From contig CAKOIM010000003.1 in NCBI GenBank assembly GCA_934086815.1, forward strand, positions 6,805 through 70,804: DNA of 64,000 nt. Direction: 5' to 3'. The position numbers were made by a program, and so were the translations under genes. Below, piece by piece: positions 709 through 63,964 of the stretch; within the stretch, counting starts at the first letter, position 1; each line of letters starts with the position of its first letter. The notes beneath the pieces were generated by a model. That model was not told the origin of the DNA and ran no database searches. It saw nothing but the letters and a program-made list of their open reading frames with translations. Source of the stretch: an uncultured Bacilli bacterium (GTDB lineage Bacteria > Bacillota_I > Bacilli_A > RF39 > UBA660).

Positions 709-2268
709 TTAAGATTTCTTAAGATTTATCCTAAATTCTGTTTTCAAATTCTTTTTCTTCTTTGAAATTAATCTAATATTTCCCCCATGAAGAAGTACAA
801 TAGATTTTACTATAGACATTCCAAGACCTAAACCAGAACCTGAAGTTCTTGCATCATCCCCAGTTACAAAAGGCTCAAACAAAGTTTTACTTAATTTTTT
901 TGAAATGCCACATCCATCATCACCAATAAATATATTAACATCATTTTTATTTTCAACAATACTAAAATATATCTTTGTCCCTTCTTTATTATATTTAATA
1001 GCATTATTTATCAAATTATCATAAACCCTTTTAAACTCTTTTTCATCAATATTTACCCATATTGCTCTTGTCGGAATACTAACTTCTAGTTGCATATTAT
1101 TAAATTCTATTTCATCATATTTTAAAGCCAAGTACTCTTTTGAAAATTTACATATATCAACTCTTTCTTTATTTAATTCATATTTAGGATGCTCTAACTT
1201 TGCATATGCACATAAATCATCTATTAATTCTACAGTTAAATTGCATTTATTATTTATTATTTGCATATACTCATTTATTCTATCCTTTGGTACAACACCA
1301 TCAATAAAAGCTTTGGAATAACCCTTAATTACTGTTAAAGGTGTTTTTAAATCATGTGATAAATTAGCAATTACCTTTTGTTTTTCTAAATAACCACTTT
1401 CTTTTTCTTTTTCAGCTTTATCAAGCTTATGCATTAATTCATCAAAACTATTTACAACGCTTTGAAACTCTTTTGGCAATAAAATATCTTCTTTAGTTTG
1501 ATAGTTACTAATTTTTCTTTTCAAAACACTTAAATTAGCTTTTAATTTTTTATTAAAAAAATATGTCTCAATTAAAACAATTAACAAAATAAAAGGAAGC
1601 GATAAAGCCCACATTTGTCTAGAATCCTTAATAGCTTCATCATAACTTTTTGAACTAACACTAGGCATAGAAAACAATAAAATTCTTATATTCCCATCGT
1701 TATCTTCATATGTATATTTTTCAATTACTTTATCACTTTTATATATTCCCTTTATTAAATCTATTTCTTCTTGCGTTAATTTTTCTTTATCTTGTAATAT
1801 GTTTCCTCCGGTAATTTTCAAATCGTCATTAAGAATCGCATACCCAAGCATTAATTCTTCCCCATTATCATCTAAAGTATTTTGAAATAATACATAACTA
1901 TATTTATTATCAACATCATAAGTATATATTGAATAATAAGTATTATCATAATAATCATTTATAAAATTTATCTCATCTTTATCTATTACTTTTGTTATTT
2001 CATCATTTGAACTATATAATACATTTTTATCTTCATCATAAACAGCAAAACTACAATTTTTCATTTTTTCAATTGGTATATTTCCATAATCTTCACTCTT
2101 TAAATATTCTTCATATATTAATATATCATCAAAAACTACAAAACTATGATCAAGTTTCCAATTAACAAGTAAACTAATTAAAAAACATACCACTACAATT
2201 AATGTTGCACAAATTAAGAATTGCAATAAGCAAATATTTATAAAACTATATCCTTTATTTGTTTTCAA
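709..2268 (-). CDS. Sensor histidine kinase (HisKA + HATPase_c) with N-terminal TM/extracellular domain
   Basis: H-box LSHDLKTPLTVIKGY; G-boxes GDDGCGISKK and GSGLGLGMSIVKSIV. Confidence 0.85.
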   Translation of the reverse strand: MKTNKGYSFINICLLQFLICATLIVVVCFLISLLVNWKLDHSFVVFDDILIYEEYLKSEDYGNIPIEKMKNCSFAVYDEDKNVLYSSNDEITKVIDKDEINFINDYYDNTYYSIYTYDVDNKYSYVLFQNTLDDNGEELMLGYAILNDDLKITGGNILQDKEKLTQEEIDLIKGIYKSDKVIEKYTYEDNDGNIRILLFSMPSVSSKSYDEAIKDSRQMWALSLPFILLIVLIETYFFNKKLKANLSVLKRKISNYQTKEDILLPKEFQSVVNSFDELMHKLDKAEKEKESGYLEKQKVIANLSHDLKTPLTVIKGYSKAFIDGVVPKDRINEYMQIINNKCNLTVELIDDLCAYAKLEHPKYELNKERVDICKFSKEYLALKYDEIEFNNMQLEVSIPTRAIWVNIDEKEFKRVYDNLINNAIKYNKEGTKIYFSIVENKNDVNIFIGDDGCGISKKLSKTLFEPFVTGDDARTSGSGLGLGMSIVKSIVLLHGGNIRLISKKKKNLKTEFRINLKKS

Positions 2269-9282: not shown

Positions 9283-10389
9283 CTATGTAGTTTGCTTATT
9301 TGTTCCTAATTTAACTGTTATATCTTGTTTTTTTCCATCTCTAAATATTGTTAATTTAATCTCATCATTTATATTATTTTGATATAAATAATATCTTAAG
9401 TAAGCAACATTTTTAACTTCTTCTCCATTAATATTTGTAATAATATCATTTGATTTTAAACCTGCTTTACTAGCCGGAGAACCCTTTTCTACATCCACTA
9501 CAATAACACCACTTGAAAGATTTGATTCTTTAATTAAATCATAATATTGATATGAATAATAAGCTTTTGATAAATCTAACATAGATATACCTATATAAGG
9601 ATAATTTGCAGTTTCTCCTTTTATAATTTGTTCCGCTTTCTTTATTGCATTTTCAATAGGAATAGCAAAACCCATACCTTCAACACCACTACTAACAAGT
9701 TTTAATGATGTTATACCAATTACTTCTCCATTTGAATTACATAAAGGACCTCCACTATTTCCAGAGTTTATTGCAGCATCCGTTTGTAAAACTTTCATAA
9801 CATAATCATTTTGACTTGATTTATCCAAAGATACTTCAACCATTCTATCTTTTCCAGAAACAATACCTCTAGTAACTGTCCAAGAATATGCACTATCAAG
9901 AGGTGCTCCAACTGCAAATGCGGTATCCCCTACGCGAGTACTTTCACTTTTACCAATAGGTGCAATTTTTACATCTTCTTTAGTTTCTAAAGATAATACA
10001 GCTATATCAGCATATTGATCAGACCCAACAACTTTCGTTTCTAAAACTTTACCATCTGTAAAAGTAACAGTAACTTTATTACCACCATCTATAACATGAT
10101 GATTAGTCAAAATATAATACTTATTATCTTCTTTTTGATACACAAAACCTGTACCTGATGCGGAATAAACATTATCCTTGTATGTAGAAACTATTACAAC
10201 TGAATCATAAACTTTTTCTACCGCATCAGCTATACCAGTATCAGTAACTGTAACGTCCTTTTCTAATTTAGTTACATTTTCAGTGATAGATGTCGGAAAA
10301 AAATATACAACCGCATACATAATCAACGCCCCGATGAATAACACCATTATATAACTAACTATATTCTTTTTATTATTTATTTCATTCAT
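9283..10389 (-). CDS. htrA: Trypsin-like serine protease HtrA/DegP with C-terminal PDZ domain
   Basis: N-terminal TM anchor; catalytic triad context HHVIDG..., DIAVL, GNSGGPL; PDZ C-terminus. Confidence 0.85.
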   Translation of the reverse strand: MNEINNKKNIVSYIMVLFIGALIMYAVVYFFPTSITENVTKLEKDVTVTDTGIADAVEKVYDSVVIVSTYKDNVYSASGTGFVYQKEDNKYYILTNHHVIDGGNKVTVTFTDGKVLETKVVGSDQYADIAVLSLETKEDVKIAPIGKSESTRVGDTAFAVGAPLDSAYSWTVTRGIVSGKDRMVEVSLDKSSQNDYVMKVLQTDAAINSGNSGGPLCNSNGEVIGITSLKLVSSGVEGMGFAIPIENAIKKAEQIIKGETANYPYIGISMLDLSKAYYSYQYYDLIKESNLSSGVIVVDVEKGSPASKAGLKSNDIITNINGEEVKNVAYLRYYLYQNNINDEIKLTIFRDGKKQDITVKLGTNKQTT

Positions 10390-11321
10390 TTTTCTAACCT
10401 CACTATTTCTTTGTAATTATTTGGAAATCCCATTTCATGTAAAACCTTATCAATATTTATAACTTCTAATTTCCCAGCTAATAAGTCAAATTCATAACTA
10501 ATCTCACTTATAAACAACTGGAAATTTCTTGAATCAAGAAGTTGTTTTAATATAATAATTAATGCAAACAAATCATTTTTACCATAAACATAAAAATCAT
10601 CTTGCTTAGGAATATATAACTGTTGATGAAATTTAGTATCGTCAATATTTTTTTGTGTTCTATTTAAATAACAAATATCCTCATGAGCACAAAGATTTCG
10701 ATAATTAGCTACAATTGGTAAATAAGAAATCATATTTTGAACACTAATTTCAAATATATCAGCTATTTCTTTTTGGTCTTGATACTGTAATATAGTATAT
10801 AATTCTCCGACTATCCCAAAAGATAAAACTTTCACAACAACCCAAAGTGGTATATATCCATAATTTATTAAGTAATGCGCTGTTGCAGTGTGTTGTTTTC
10901 CATTAACACTTATTTGTCTTTTCATCTTTTTTATTAAATCGTTAATTTGTCTATTTTTACGAGAATCCTTCACAAAATTGTGGGGATTTAAATAATTATT
11001 TTCCTTAAACCCATGATTTTTACTCATTACATATGCTAAAATACTTTTTAAATTATTTTCAACTATTAATAAGTTTTTAAATATTATATTTCTTAACTTT
11101 CTATCAAAAGAAAACATAGCATATAACTCTTCAAATTTTGTTCCTTCTAAATACTTTCTATTATTAAAAGGATCCAAAAATAAATGACGGTAACCACTTA
11201 GAAAGAAATAATTTTCTCTTAAAAGCGTAGTTTTAGCACTCTCTATATCGCTAATGATAAGCCCTTTACTTGCAAGTATGTCAATTTGTTCATCTAATGT
11301 TTTAAATGTCTTTGTTTTCAC
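10386..11321 (-). CDS. Abi_2-family abortive-infection protein (AbiD/AbiF-like)
   Basis: N-terminus KTFKTLDEQIDILASKGLIISDIESAKTTLLRENYFFLSGYRHLF matches the Abi_2 family signature. GTG start; stop overlaps the htrA start (ATGA). Confidence 0.65.
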   Translation of the reverse strand: MKTKTFKTLDEQIDILASKGLIISDIESAKTTLLRENYFFLSGYRHLFLDPFNNRKYLEGTKFEELYAMFSFDRKLRNIIFKNLLIVENNLKSILAYVMSKNHGFKENNYLNPHNFVKDSRKNRQINDLIKKMKRQISVNGKQHTATAHYLINYGYIPLWVVVKVLSFGIVGELYTILQYQDQKEIADIFEISVQNMISYLPIVANYRNLCAHEDICYLNRTQKNIDDTKFHQQLYIPKQDDFYVYGKNDLFALIIILKQLLDSRNFQLFISEISYEFDLLAGKLEVINIDKVLHEMGFPNNYKEIVRLEK

Positions 11322-11420
11322 ACTATACCGCCTTTACTTTAAACATTATATCACACTTGACATAATAAATATATAAAAAAATAATGTTGTAAATGTAAAT
11401 AAAAAGTGATTTTTATGTGA

Positions 11421-11964
11421 TTAAATATAATAATCACTTAATGCTTCGGCTATAGCCTGAGCAATTTCTTCTTGATATTTTTTTGTGACTAACTTTTCCC
11501 TTTCATTTTTATTTGATAAAAAACCACACTCAATTAGTATTCCCTTTTTATTAAGTTTATTATACATATATGTAGATGTAGGTATTTTTTTAATTTCTCT
11601 ATCCCCATTTAATTTCTTATTCAAGTGATTTTGAACAAAGTGAGCTAAATTCTTATTTTCTTTATTATAAAATACTTGAGGTCCATAATATTTAGTGTCC
11701 AATAAAAAATTCAAATGAATTGATAAATATAAATTTGTTTTTTCTTGATTTATAATTTTTATCCTTTCATCAAAATCAGCTTTTTTACGATGATTTTTAA
11801 CTCCTTTACTTAAATCTTTATCACTATCCCGAGTTAAAATAACAGTCGCACCCATCTGGCTTAAAATTTTTTCTAAATACAAGCTTATATTTAAAGTTAT
11901 ATCTTTTTCATAAATATCTTTATAAATAGCTCCAGGATCTAGTCCTCCATGTGGAGGACTCTGT
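11421..11964 (-). pseudogene. cwlD: N-acetylmuramoyl-L-alanine amidase (Amidase_3, CwlD-like), 3' fragment lacking a start codon; truncated by the element insertion
   Basis: The reading frame opens directly after a TAA (11965-11967): QSPPHGGLDPGAIYKDIYEKDITLNISLYLEKILSQMGATVILTRD...ECGFLSN.... The gene-derived part ends at the 9-bp core 11944-11952. Confidence 0.8.
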
Positions 11965-11978
11965 TAAATCCAAACTTT

Positions 11979-12812
11979 TTATTTCATTTCTATTTTTTCT
12001 TGTCTTTTCTGTTCTTTTTCTAATTCTTTTAAAGACTTTTTAGGTGTAGGTAAATCTTCAGGCATGACACCTCCAAGTCTTTTAATAGTATTTCTAACTT
12101 CTTGACCTACTTCATAATGCGTTTCTTTTGCTTTACTTTCACCTTGTATATTATCTCTTTTCAATTTTTGTTCAGTTTGTGAAATTCTAAATAGATTAGC
12201 AATTAATTCATCACTACCCATATTGTCTAAAATATCTTCTCTATATCTTAAACCTTTTCTTTTAGCAATATCATCGGCTGTTTCACCATTATATAACCCT
12301 TTATAACCAGCATTATGAAATTGATCAAAGTTTTTAACACCTGCTTTTCTAGCTGCTTGGTTTAGAGAATAGTTTCCTTTTTTGGTTAAACTTCTTTGAT
12401 AAAATCTTTTTTCGTCTTCAGTTAACATAGAATACTCTTTTTCAGTTAATTCCTGACGTCTTGTTTGTACTGCAAAGTAAGTTTGACCTAGTGCAACAAC
12501 TTCTTTTCTAGGATCTGAATTTTGTACTATCAAATAGCATATATACCTTGATAGTTTATAATCTTGTATATTAGCAGTTGCATTATTGTTTCTTTTTGAC
12601 AACTTGTTGACCTCAACAAGTTGTTCTTCTACATTATATCCTGAATTTATACAAGCCTCTTTTGCTTTGTTTAAAACTTTTAAAAAATTTCTCCAATCTC
12701 TATATTCTAAAACTTTTGCAAGTTCTCTAGCTAACCAATACTCATTACCATAATCATCAATATGTTTAATACCTTCAAATATTATTTCATTATATTCTTT
12801 AATTTCGTTCAT
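11979..12812 (-). CDS. DinD-like DNA-damage-inducible protein (Bro-N-related) plus basic C-terminal tail
   Basis: N-terminus NEYWLARELAKVLEYRDWRNFLKVLNKAKEAC resembles the DinD family. Confidence 0.5.
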   Translation of the reverse strand: MNEIKEYNEIIFEGIKHIDDYGNEYWLARELAKVLEYRDWRNFLKVLNKAKEACINSGYNVEEQLVEVNKLSKRNNNATANIQDYKLSRYICYLIVQNSDPRKEVVALGQTYFAVQTRRQELTEKEYSMLTEDEKRFYQRSLTKKGNYSLNQAARKAGVKNFDQFHNAGYKGLYNGETADDIAKRKGLRYREDILDNMGSDELIANLFRISQTEQKLKRDNIQGESKAKETHYEVGQEVRNTIKRLGGVMPEDLPTPKKSLKELEKEQKRQEKIEMK

Positions 12813-12872
12813 CCATTAACTCCTATTTTTCTGTATTTCTCATTTTGTAGAAAAGTCCAAATCACTGCTTTA

Positions 12873-14492
12873 TTAAAATTCAAAATTCCATTCTATTTCA
12901 ATATCTCGTGTTTTTGTAATTTTATCATAATTTCCAATATAAATTTTATCAATAAATTCATCAATTATTACTTTATTAAGTTCTTTAATGTGTTTATATT
13001 TTTTTAATATTTTATCAGTCTCTTTTTTGTCATCTGCGAGTTTTTTTAAATTTTCTATTTCAATATCAATTAATTCTATTCTTTTCATCATATTTTCAAT
13101 TTCACTAAAATACTCTTTTGACATAAACCGAAACATTTCCTCTTCTATAACACCATTAACTTTTTCTTCAAAAAGATTTCGATAATAATTTTTATTACTT
13201 TCTACTCTCTTTGTAAGATTTTCTTTTTCTTTAATTAATAAATTTATCTTTATCTCATTATCAAAATTATTTTTATCTTTTTGTTGATAGAGTTCTTTTA
13301 AGTTATTTTGATCATAATAATTATTTAGTAAATCATTGATAGCATTAAGTAAAATAGTTTCTAATTCATCTATTCTAATCGCTTTATTATTATCGCATAT
13401 GTGATATTTCTTTGCTCCCTTACACTGCAAGTATGCCCTTTTACCATCGTGAGCATTATATACATTTCTCATAAAAGATTTATTACAACAACTACAATAC
13501 ACTTTTCTACTTAAATAATGTACTTCACCACTTTTAATAGGTCTACTATGTGTTCCTAATATTTTCTGCACTTTATTCCATGTTTCCATGTCAATTATAG
13601 CTTCGTGTGAATTTTCTATTCTACACCAATCACTTTCTGGTACTTTTTTAAATTTGTGCACCTTGTATCCTAATGATGCTTTTTTTCCTTGAACTAAATT
13701 ACCAATATATGCCTCATTTCTTAGTATCTGTGCGATTGTATCAGGGCTCCACCTAACTGTATTTAAATCACAACTTGAGCAAACATACTTGCTACCTTTT
13801 TGTTTTTTATAAACAGACCTAGGTGGTATATTATTATTGTTTAGATATTCACAAATTTTGTGATAACCATAACCATTTGCATACATTTCAAATATTTTTC
13901 TAACAACTTCAGCAGCAACTGGGTCAATAACTAACTTATGTTTATCTTCTGCATATTTTTCATAACCATAAGGAGCAAAACTTCCCATAAACAAACCATC
14001 TTCTCGTTTATTTTTTAAAGACTTTTTGATATTCGTTGACAAATCATCTAAATACCATTCATTAATAAGTCCATTTATTTGTCTTGATTTCTTATTAGAC
14101 TCAATACTTGTATCAGCATTATCAACAATACTTACAAATCGAACTTGCCATTCTATGAACTTATTGTGTAAATATCTTTCAATAACTTCCATATCTCTTG
14201 AAAATCTTGATTGACTTTTGCATAAAACTAAATTAATTTTCCCACTTTCACAATCTTTGATAAGTCTTTCAAAGTCAGGTCTATAAGTCCCTGCGCCTGA
14301 AAAGTCATCATCAGAATAAATATCTACAACATTCCATCCACATTGACTTGCATATTTTAAACACATACTTCTTTGGTTTATTATACTATTACTATCATCA
14401 TTTTTATTTATTTTATCTCTATCTTCATCAGATAACCTACAATATACACCTACCTTTTCTATCATAGCCATTCCTCCAATATATAAGAACAA
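12873..14492 (-). CDS. Large serine recombinase (resolvase catalytic domain + recombinase domain + zinc ribbon + coiled coil)
   Basis: N-terminus VGVYCRLSDEDRD...QRS (resolvase); central Cys cluster CSSC...CSCC...C; long C-terminal coiled coil; 539 aa. Confidence 0.85.
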   Translation of the reverse strand: MFLYIGGMAMIEKVGVYCRLSDEDRDKINKNDDSNSIINQRSMCLKYASQCGWNVVDIYSDDDFSGAGTYRPDFERLIKDCESGKINLVLCKSQSRFSRDMEVIERYLHNKFIEWQVRFVSIVDNADTSIESNKKSRQINGLINEWYLDDLSTNIKKSLKNKREDGLFMGSFAPYGYEKYAEDKHKLVIDPVAAEVVRKIFEMYANGYGYHKICEYLNNNNIPPRSVYKKQKGSKYVCSSCDLNTVRWSPDTIAQILRNEAYIGNLVQGKKASLGYKVHKFKKVPESDWCRIENSHEAIIDMETWNKVQKILGTHSRPIKSGEVHYLSRKVYCSCCNKSFMRNVYNAHDGKRAYLQCKGAKKYHICDNNKAIRIDELETILLNAINDLLNNYYDQNNLKELYQQKDKNNFDNEIKINLLIKEKENLTKRVESNKNYYRNLFEEKVNGVIEEEMFRFMSKEYFSEIENMMKRIELIDIEIENLKKLADDKKETDKILKKYKHIKELNKVIIDEFIDKIYIGNYDKITKTRDIEIEWNFEF

Positions 14493-51109: not shown

Positions 51110-51335
51110 AACAAAAAAAATCATAAACTAAGGACGAGTTTTCCCGCGGTACCACCTTAATTCATGAATTTCATGCAACTTAAATTTATAACGTAATTAC
51201 CCGTTTTAACTCCAGAACCATGTTCAATATATCCATTAATTCTTTTTCACCAACCAAGAACTCTCTACTTAACTTTTATATTTACTCTTTCCTTCTTCGT
51301 TAATTCAATTTTATTTTAACATATATATTTAAGAT
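51110..51335 (-). ncRNA. Candidate T-box leader upstream of dut-metG
   Basis: Minus strand AATTAAGGTGGTACCGCGGG (51143-51162) matches the T-box core 18/19, with exact GGTGGTACCGCGG. An AGAGAG stem-I element lies upstream, a possible TTGAAT-17-TAAAAT promoter at ~51296-51335, and a U-run before dut. The terminator helix is not clearly resolved. Confidence 0.5.
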
Positions 51336-62603: not shown

Positions 62604-62993
62604 TTTTAAACTTCCTTTCAATATCAAAAAAAGTGCACACAAACATAGACTGATGTGGCTGCTATTTTCCAATCCTGACCAAGTTACAGCATATTTGTTG
62701 CACGATTAAATACTAACAAATATTTTTTTTAATGTCAATAGCAAAAAAAAGCCAAAAAATTATATAAATTATTTCCCGGGAAATATTTATCTATTAAAAA
62801 AATATATCGATTAACAGTTTTATTTGTTATTTTTTTTATGATTTTTTACCTAAAATAAAGCAAATACAGTGTATTATTTTAAAATTTTTCTCTTTTTTTT
62901 CTCTTTTTTTTCTCTAGTTATATTGTGTATACTATGTATATACAATGTTTAACTGAGTTATATGTTAATAACAAGCATTAAAAAAAACATTTA

Positions 62994-63964
62994 TGTTTCA
63001 CGTGAAACATAAATGTTTTTCTAAATTAACTCAAATACATTTTTTATTATAAATAATTATTAATTAACTTTGGTTCCACGTGAAACATTAAATAAAATAT
63101 AACCAAGGTAAATACTCAATATACAATTAACTATGTTTCACGTGGAACATTACTTATAATTTTTTAATATGATTATTTGGTGTGTAAGTTATTTTGCAAC
63201 TTATATTATTGCAAAAGGTTTCACGTGAAACATATGATACAATAGCAAGATTATGAGGTTTAAATTATTAAAAAATACACAGTGTTTCACGTGAAACATT
63301 GCATAATAAAAAGATCAACTTATTCAATAACAATATTTATAAAAATAATGATATAAATTAATCATTCACTTATCAACAAATTGTTTCACGTGAAACATTA
63401 CTTATAAATTTTAATATGATTCTTTGGCTTAAAAGTTATTTTGCAACTTATATTATTGCAACAATGTTAAGGTTTCACGTGAAACACATAATACAAATGG
63501 TGTTAAAATCATAAAAAAATACACAGTGTTTCACGTGAAACATATTTTTTCTTATATATTTAATAAATAATCATAAGTATAGGTTATTTCAAATAAATAT
63601 GGATTAAAAATGATTTTTCACGTGGAACATTACTCATAATTTTCAATATGATTCTTTGGTGTGTAAGTTATTTTGCTATTTATATAATTTCAACAGTATT
63701 AATGTTTCACGTGAAACATTGCACAATTAAAAAGACTGACTTATTTAATAGCATTATTTATAAAAATAGTATTATATAAATGAATCTAGATTAAACTAAT
63801 CGTTTATAATTGATTTAGCATAATCATTTACTTAATATCTAAGATACTTTATCAACAAATTGTTTCACGTGAAACATATTTTTACTTATATATTTTATAA
63901 ACAATCATAATTATAGGTTATTTCAAATAAAAATTGATTAATAATTAATGTTTCACGTGGAACA
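62994..63964. repeat. Array of 12 parS-like 16-bp palindromes (TGTTTCACGTGAAACA / TGTTCCACGTGAAACA and one-mismatch variants) embedded in higher-order ~90/250-bp repeats; candidate ParB/Spo0J centromere cluster
   Basis: Sites at 62994, 63072, 63134, 63217, 63283, 63382, 63471, 63527, 63614, 63703, 63861, 63949 (each 16 bp). Seven are perfect matches to the parS consensus and five differ at one position. No ORF >=60 aa between 62700 and 64000. Confidence 0.8.

Follow-up and report, generated by a model that had tools for sequence, protein, structure and literature searches.

Tandem centromere sites are a familiar trait of plasmids, and sopC of plasmid F consists of 12 tandem 43-bp repeats with a SopB site in each. 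On chromosomes, parS sites number 4 in Streptococcus pneumoniae and 20–23 in Listeria innocua. Known chromosomal clusters comprise 1 to about 23 parS sites over tens to hundreds of kb (PMC7333895). Corynebacterium glutamicum, for example, carries 10 parS sites in 35 kb, about 0.3 per kb, and this multiplicity is thought to give robustness (PMC7083940). Here, we describe a dense array of parS sites near the end of a 64,000-nucleotide stretch of DNA from an uncultured RF39/UBA660 bacterium (GCA_934086815.1, contig CAKOIM010000003.1, positions 6,805 to 70,804). This whole stretch is called the window below, and loci from other contigs are numbered L001 and upward. The array is likely to be a chromosomal parS centromere, in an extreme variant, of the genome-reduced gut Bacilli of this type. 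No description of a natural chromosomal parS array of such density, or of parS in RF39, was found in the literature.

The array shares the 16-bp consensus, the origin-proximal and mostly intergenic position, and the redundancy of sites with the clusters of Bacillus subtilis, S. pneumoniae, C. glutamicum, Streptomyces and L. innocua. Unlike those clusters, it is confined to one non-coding gap, is built of higher-order repeats, varies from 2 to 19 copies at one locus, and has no cognate ParB found so far. Its density of about 12 sites per kb is about 40 times that of the C. glutamicum cluster, which is among the chromosomal clusters studied in most depth. Tandem ParB-type palindromes in non-coding DNA are also a feature of F sopC and of the iterated centromeres of plasmids or phages. 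However, the present array lies on a chromosome between housekeeping genes, has no adjacent parAB operon and consists of canonical chromosomal parS sites, and its repeat units are longer than those of sopC (56–158 bp), heterogeneous and 17% diverged. Engineered multi-parS substrates, such as 39x parS, have close-packed sites that boost ParB condensation in vitro (PMC8299390), whereas the RF39 array is natural.

The motif scan of the 64-kb window with TGTTNCACGTGNAACA, allowing at most one mismatch, returned 12 parS 16-mers and no further match outside the array. Such matches are expected by chance at 0.01 per window, and 12 were reached in 0 of 100 shuffles. All twelve palindromes lie at the starts given in the initial annotation. 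That annotation had counted seven exact and five one-mismatch sites, which our recount corrected to eight exact and four one-mismatch sites, with the mismatches confined to the outer positions 1–2. Its statement that no open reading frame (ORF) of at least 60 amino acids lies between 62700 and the window end was also borne out, as the longest ORF there has 43 amino acids. No Rfam family was detected within the array, and in a scan for promoters and terminators the promoter-like matches were fewer than in shuffles and the terminators were zero.

The sequence past the window was obtained by an exact look-up of the DnaX protein, which led to contigs from human-gut metagenomes that match the overlapping part of the window except for one single-nucleotide polymorphism (SNP) (window position = 72134 − L001 position). 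The array had been suspected to continue past 64000, and on these contigs it overruns the window end by about 600 bp. The complete array holds 19 parS sites over 1606 bp, 7 of them past the window end. The last site corresponds to window positions 64584–64599, which leaves 54 bp to the stop codon of gyrA (64653). Five independent assemblies were concordant to within one SNP, and the copy number was identical in all of them.

The array occupies the 2 kb of non-coding DNA that separate the gyrA end from ffs–tadA–dnaX. It had been described as lying downstream of tadA–dnaX; in fact it lies upstream (5′) of the minus-strand signal recognition particle (SRP) RNA gene, tadA and dnaX, between those genes and gyrA. 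Beyond the window end, the extending contigs carry gyrA, gyrB, recF, a ComK-like gene, dnaN and dnaA. The conserved flanks are thus dnaA–dnaN–recF–gyrB–gyrA on one side and tadA–dnaX–ybaB–recR on the other. The window has a G+C content of 26% and carries nearly all of its genes on the minus strand. Its GC skew is strongly negative throughout, as in a lagging strand, which places the origin to the right of the window. In the relative L009, the skew flips sign just upstream of dnaA, so that the array, 7–9 kb from dnaA–dnaN, would lie at that distance from the origin region.

To sample the lineage, a DnaN search with one genome per species was used, and 68 loci from metagenome-assembled genomes (MAGs) of uncultured Bacilli or 'Tenericutes' were collected. 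Their hosts are humans, chickens, rabbits and other animals, with the gut as the source. Firmicutes bacterium CAG:460, Clostridium sp. CAG:609, Mycoplasma sp. CAG:472 and Candidatus Onthocola are among them, and CAG-460 has been assigned to family UBA660 of the order RF39, a group of genome-reduced Bacilli (PMC13155120). In all 54 species loci with more than 100 bp of sequence beyond gyrA, parS sites were present in this gap, and the 1.93 Mb of lineage DNA sampled contained none elsewhere. A comparison with related genomes had been proposed in the initial annotation, and it revealed that copy number does vary: the 45 complete gaps hold 2–19 parS sites with a median of 6, the window species having the most. 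The genes beyond the window, the skew flip and the 54 of 54 relatives support the earlier suggestion of a concentrated chromosomal centromere near the origin.

The sites are conserved in a way that their surroundings are not. With parS masked, the spacers showed essentially no homology to other species, apart from one weak 44-bp match in L038; beyond this match, alignment between species was limited to the SRP RNA gene and 23 bp around a Noc-type site. Among homologous subunits inside the array, 4.8% of the 16-mer positions differ versus 17.5% of the spacer positions. The spacers therefore diverge 3.6 times faster than the 16-mers, indicating selection on the sites themselves. In the cross-species set of 315 sites, 221 are identical to TGTTTCACGTGAAACA. 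Positions 2 and 7, which discriminate parS from the Noc site, and the core are invariant across the 315 sites, and the A and T that flank the 16-mer are 94% conserved, giving an 18-bp palindrome. Many of the MAG contigs of the lineage end at or inside the array (L007, L044–L046, L051, L056, L063 and L069). The array is thus a recurrent short-read assembly breakpoint, and the site counts from MAGs may be underestimates.

The higher-order structure was derived by cutting the array at the parS sites and comparing the subunits. Direct repeats of 50–100 bp with 65–90% identity occur within the array, and four types of parS-bearing subunit were distinguished: A (83–90 bp), B (56–67 bp), C (99–158 bp) and D (87–88 bp). 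Their order along the array is x x A B C / A B D / A C D / A B C D / x B′ A′. The array is therefore a higher-order unit of roughly 400 bp with four sites, amplified about four times with internal deletions. The initial annotation had recognised nested repeats of ~90 and ~250 bp; the repetition is real, but the ~400-bp unit of four 56–158-bp subunits fits better. The start-to-start spacing of parS has a minimum of 51 bp and a median of 113 bp, without helical phasing, and the spacers have a G+C content of 16%. Because the subunits differ by indels, Tandem Repeats Finder is blind to the array in the window. One-mismatch DnaA boxes, TTATCAACA, stand at 63370–63378 and 63849–63857, with a third copy past the window, and each abuts the next parS at the end of a type-C subunit.

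In other species, the arrays have periods of 64, 84, 98, 101, 141/154 and 167 bp. Tandem Repeats Finder gave a 449-bp multi-site unit of 89% identity in L053, versus 82% for its 154-bp monomer, and a 191-bp unit of 96% identity in L043, versus 88% for its 64-bp monomer. Since multi-site blocks are more alike than monomers and the periods differ by species, the arrays appear to have expanded repeatedly and independently by block duplication. Monomers that are less alike than blocks are also typical of alpha-satellite higher-order repeats, a likeness that concerns repeat dynamics only and not the proteins. Copy number would shift through unequal recombination or slippage of multi-site blocks, while selection would preserve the individual 16-mers.

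Other roles for these palindromes were weighed against that of a chromosomal centromere. They could be operators of an unrelated regulator, such as a CACGTG-binding factor, or parts of a neutral satellite that binds nothing; no binding protein was identified for them, and slippage and amplification happen readily in intergenic DNA that is AT-rich. We regard this as very unlikely, because the conserved unit is the full 16–18-bp parS palindrome rather than the CACGTG core, because parS is kept while the spacers turn over completely, and because a neutral satellite would not keep so many sites at the exact consensus. A single origin-proximal locus with none elsewhere in 1.9 Mb is, moreover, the pattern of a centromere and not of a regulon. 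It is extremely improbable that the array is a replication-control element, oriC-like or DnaA-titrating, instead of a segregation element. Its proximity to dnaA and the DnaA boxes that adjoin parS in each type-C subunit would fit such a role, but there are only three boxes, each with one mismatch, and they are copies within one repeat type. Furthermore, the element that is conserved across species is parS and not the DnaA box, and the skew switch and paired DnaA boxes are located around dnaA. A mobile origin, either as the centromere of an integrated plasmid or phage-plasmid, which the initial annotation had considered, or as that of another mobile element, was rejected as next to impossible. 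The gap contains no mobile genes, integrase or tRNA, its flanks carry no mobile-element genes, neither parA nor parB adjoins the array, synteny is conserved along with the presence of parS in the same gap of 54 of 54 species, and blastn with the array against collections of 72,556 plasmids and 50,697 phages gave no match. The general point that tandem clusters such as F sopC are typical of mobile elements holds, and small canonical parS arrays with up to 8 sites (L155) do occur on IMG/VR contigs, but it does not apply to this array.

An exact Noc-binding-site (NBS) palindrome, TATTTCCCGGGAAATA, lies between the array and the promoter-like site of the SRP RNA gene. Exact NBS copies were found at the equivalent place in about 40 related species (L008–L072), with 1–4 copies each, and the 23-bp block around the NBS is 100% conserved across species. 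In L055, NBS copies are interleaved with parS. The sampled lineage DNA contained 250 parS-type and 58 NBS-type palindromes, 4 other variants and 0 parS/NBS hybrids. In more distant relatives (group B, with DnaN about 60% identical), the NBS is absent and perfect parS clusters persist. Additional NBS copies lie in the mnmE/mnmG area to the left of dnaA, and most of the NBS copies found adjoin the parS array. A polypyrimidine tract at 62885–62915, between the Noc-type site and parS 1, consists of a perfect 11-bp tandem repeat, TTTTTCTCTTT, in 2.8 copies.

A single ParB-family gene, here called X, was found in the relatives, directly after rsmG in the order mnmE–mnmG–rsmG–X, 8–9 kb upstream of dnaN and across dnaA from the array. 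X contains the ParB_N and HTH_ParB domains and a GERRY motif. Its best solved relatives were Noc (199 and 193 bits) and B. subtilis Spo0J (184 bits). On the NCBIfam models, X scored 277–278 bits for Noc (TIGR04285), below the cut-off of 315 bits, and 188 bits for parB_part, whereas the Spo0J control scored 257 and 227 bits, respectively. Four specificity positions (173, 179, 184 and 201) read RTAG in ParB and QKKR in Noc; Q173 contacts A1 and R201 contacts C6 of the Noc site, and R173 is universal among parS binders (PMC7383237). X has Q173, K179, S or T184 and R201 in the closer relatives and in all of the best 120 database homologues, the residues being known from relatives and not from the window species itself. 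With these Noc-type residues, X is predicted to read the Noc site and not parS. The protein has no more than about 12 residues ahead of its conserved ILQIP motif, and the reading frame is not open further upstream. X thus has no N-terminal extension and should lack the Noc membrane-targeting helix, and a ParA-stimulating peptide is likewise absent. The C-terminal region is long, differs from that of Noc and carries a conserved N(K/R)FFNxLE motif. The exact NBS and a paralogue directly after rsmG with Q173, K179 and R201 resemble the Noc–NBS system of Bacillus and Staphylococcus, but the missing membrane helix, the different long C-terminus and the score under the Noc cut-off set X apart from it. 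In the distant relatives, X is intact, and its recognition helix, GIPLSVLEGKLKLL (GIPLSVLEGK), has lost Q162, K171, S172 and N178.

We consider it very unlikely that these genome-reduced Bacilli have no canonical ParB or ParA at all, with parS and NBS both read by the helix-less X or parS read by some other protein. If this were true, the locus would be a two-motif regional centromere evolving like a satellite, with a natural dual-specificity ParB/Noc protein. The form of this explanation in which the lineage has no canonical ParB and the Noc-like X reads both the parS array and the NBS by natural dual specificity is, in itself, very unlikely. It would fit the finding of no ParB-family gene other than X near the origin across some 30 loci, the near-equal similarity of X to Spo0J and Noc, its score below the NCBIfam Noc cut-off and the adjacent, in L055 interleaved, positions of parS and NBS; dual-specificity variants also occur in mutational scans (PMC7383237). 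However, such variants mostly have T or S at position 201, where X has R201, and parS-specific variants always have R173, whereas the Q173 and R201 of X specify A1 and C6, i.e., the Noc site (PMC7383237). The lack of hybrid half-sites also speaks against dual specificity, as does group B, where the helix of X has lost K171, S172 and N178 and the NBS is gone while perfect parS sites remain. The persistence of parS clusters where X has lost its DNA contacts indicates that maintenance of parS does not depend on X; this speaks for a separate, canonical ParB encoded at another place in the genome.

Several observations weigh against the array being a chromosomal ParB–parS centromere. Across about 100 kb per genome, reaching from roughly −20 kb to +85 kb relative to the origin, no canonical ParB was found, and the sole ParB-family gene there, seen in some 30 loci, has the Noc-type residues described above. 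In short-read MAGs, arrays of very similar repeats may be collapsed or inflated, and their site counts with them, a caveat that does not apply to the window species with its five concordant assemblies. The searches covered the window and 168 loci, with Spo0J and Soj sequences as tblastn probes and with hmmsearch of all ORFs of at least 70 amino acids by a ParB profile; both approaches recovered X alone and no ParA. ParB was also absent from about 30 kb per genome added around X, to the left of the window and around P0022, and the best 120 matches to X in a homologue search were all X orthologues, with no canonical ParB among them. For ParA, there was no Soj tblastn match in any locus or in the window, and no ParA-type Pfam domain among the called genes there. 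The search for partition genes beyond the window that the initial annotation had suggested therefore yielded a ParB-family gene in the relatives, albeit one of Noc type, and no parA.

In the proposed mechanism of the parS centromere, a canonical ParB, i.e., a Spo0J-type CTPase clamp with R173 and a small residue at 201, would be encoded elsewhere in the genome. It would load at each 16-mer, close on cytidine triphosphate (CTP) and slide outward onto the flanking DNA. With its 19 sites, the array would multiply the loading of ParB and gather it into a single large partition complex at the origin. Some Bacilli can do without ParA. As no ParA was seen near the origin genes, the probable output would be origin organisation and SMC loading rather than ParA-driven transport. 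Species with ParB, parS and SMC but without ParA exist, such as the low-G+C Bacilli S. pneumoniae and Staphylococcus aureus (PMC7333895). The present genomes resemble them in that no ParA was seen near the origin genes, but those two species carry only a handful of dispersed parS sites, unlike the compact array. ParB clamps load at parS, and in vitro the condensation force grows with the number of sites and needs about 5–7 of them (PMC8299390). The Noc-like paralogue encoded after rsmG is the probable reader of the neighbouring NBS, so that two proteins would mark a landmark close to the origin.

A review lists among the open questions of the field the reason for the variation in parS number, given that one site is enough, and the cause of parS clustering (PMC7333895). 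The present lineage offers a natural series in which closely related species carry 2 to 19 parS sites at one locus, in one gap, with repeated block growth. The array is a ready substrate for asking how ParB clamp loading, the size of the partition complex and SMC recruitment depend on the number and spacing of sites. The adjoining yet sharply distinct parS and NBS, together with a Noc-like protein without the membrane helix, inform the divergence of ParB and Noc. The coordinates of the sites and of the neighbouring genes are collected in Table 1.

Table 1. Features of the parS array, its surroundings and the related loci (window positions unless a locus is named).
Feature	Position	Strand	Sequence or match	Remark
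Visible part of array, 12 of 19 parS sites	62994..63964	.		Motif scan and matching contigs
parS 1	62994..63009		TGTTTCACGTGAAACA, exact	Middle of a 50-bp near-perfect palindrome (inverted-repeat scan)
parS 2	63072..63087		GGTTCCACGTGAAACA, 1 mismatch at position 1	
parS 3	63134..63149		TGTTTCACGTGGAACA, exact	Opens type-A subunit 63134–63216
parS 4	63217..63232		GGTTTCACGTGAAACA, 1 mismatch	Opens type-B subunit 63217–63282
parS 5	63283..63298		Exact	Opens type-C subunit 63283–63381, short form, 99 bp
parS 6	63382..63397		Exact	Opens type-A subunit 63382–63470
parS 7	63471..63486		GGTTTCACGTGAAACA, 1 mismatch	Opens type-B subunit 63471–63526
parS 8	63527..63542		Exact	Opens type-D subunit 63527–63613
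parS 9	63614..63629		TTTTTCACGTGGAACA, 1 mismatch at position 2	Opens type-A subunit 63614–63702
parS 10	63703..63718		Exact	Opens type-C subunit 63703–63860, long form, 158 bp
parS 11	63861..63876		Exact	Opens type-D subunit 63861–63948
parS 12	63949..63964		TGTTTCACGTGGAACA, exact	Opens type-A subunit truncated by window end
Noc-binding site (NBS)	62770..62785	.	TATTTCCCGGGAAATA, exact	Between array and SRP RNA promoter
Promoter-like site	62710..62738	-	TTGACA-17-TAGTAT with TG	Directly upstream of SRP RNA gene; consensus match only
Small SRP RNA gene (ffs)	62620..62714	-	RF00169, 54 bits, full length	Origin-distal edge of non-coding gap
tadA, tRNA adenosine deaminase, 141 amino acids	62178..62603	-	PF00383, PF14437	
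dnaX, DNA polymerase III tau/gamma, 529 amino acids	60544..62133	-		Query for extending contigs
X gene	L028 732–1877	-		Also L008, L010, L012, L024, L053, L054; proteins P0001–P0120
X gene of distant relatives	L057–L062, L066, L071, L073, about 1270–1930	-		
ComK-like gene	L001 1456–1884			
SpoVT-like gene	L001 18776–19288			
SpoIIR-like gene	L168 11241–11744			

A ComK-family gene lies between dnaN and recF, and SpoVT-like and SpoIIR-like genes lie near the origin of these genome-reduced MAGs, which are labelled 'Tenericutes'. These genes hint at retained sporulation or competence modules. Canonical parS arrays of 3–8 sites with a 26–55-bp period were found on the IMG/VR contigs L155, L129, L136, L137 and L143. 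In L155 (6137–6460), 8 parS sites with a 38-bp period lie beside an ORF that is terminase-like by sequence reading alone. These arrays may be phage or phage-plasmid centromeres that borrow the ParB of the host.

Within the window, a probable phage remnant or defence islet at 10386–14492 on the minus strand, amid housekeeping genes, comprises genes for a serine recombinase, Bro-N, Amidase_3 and an Abi_2 abortive-infection protein. To the left of the window start, at a distance of about 7 kb, there is a Mob_Pre gene (L165). A T-box leader at 51127–51306 on the minus strand (Rfam, 106 bits) precedes a dUTPase gene, which is followed by a class-I aminoacyl-tRNA synthetase gene. To our knowledge, dut as the first gene behind a T-box is unusual.

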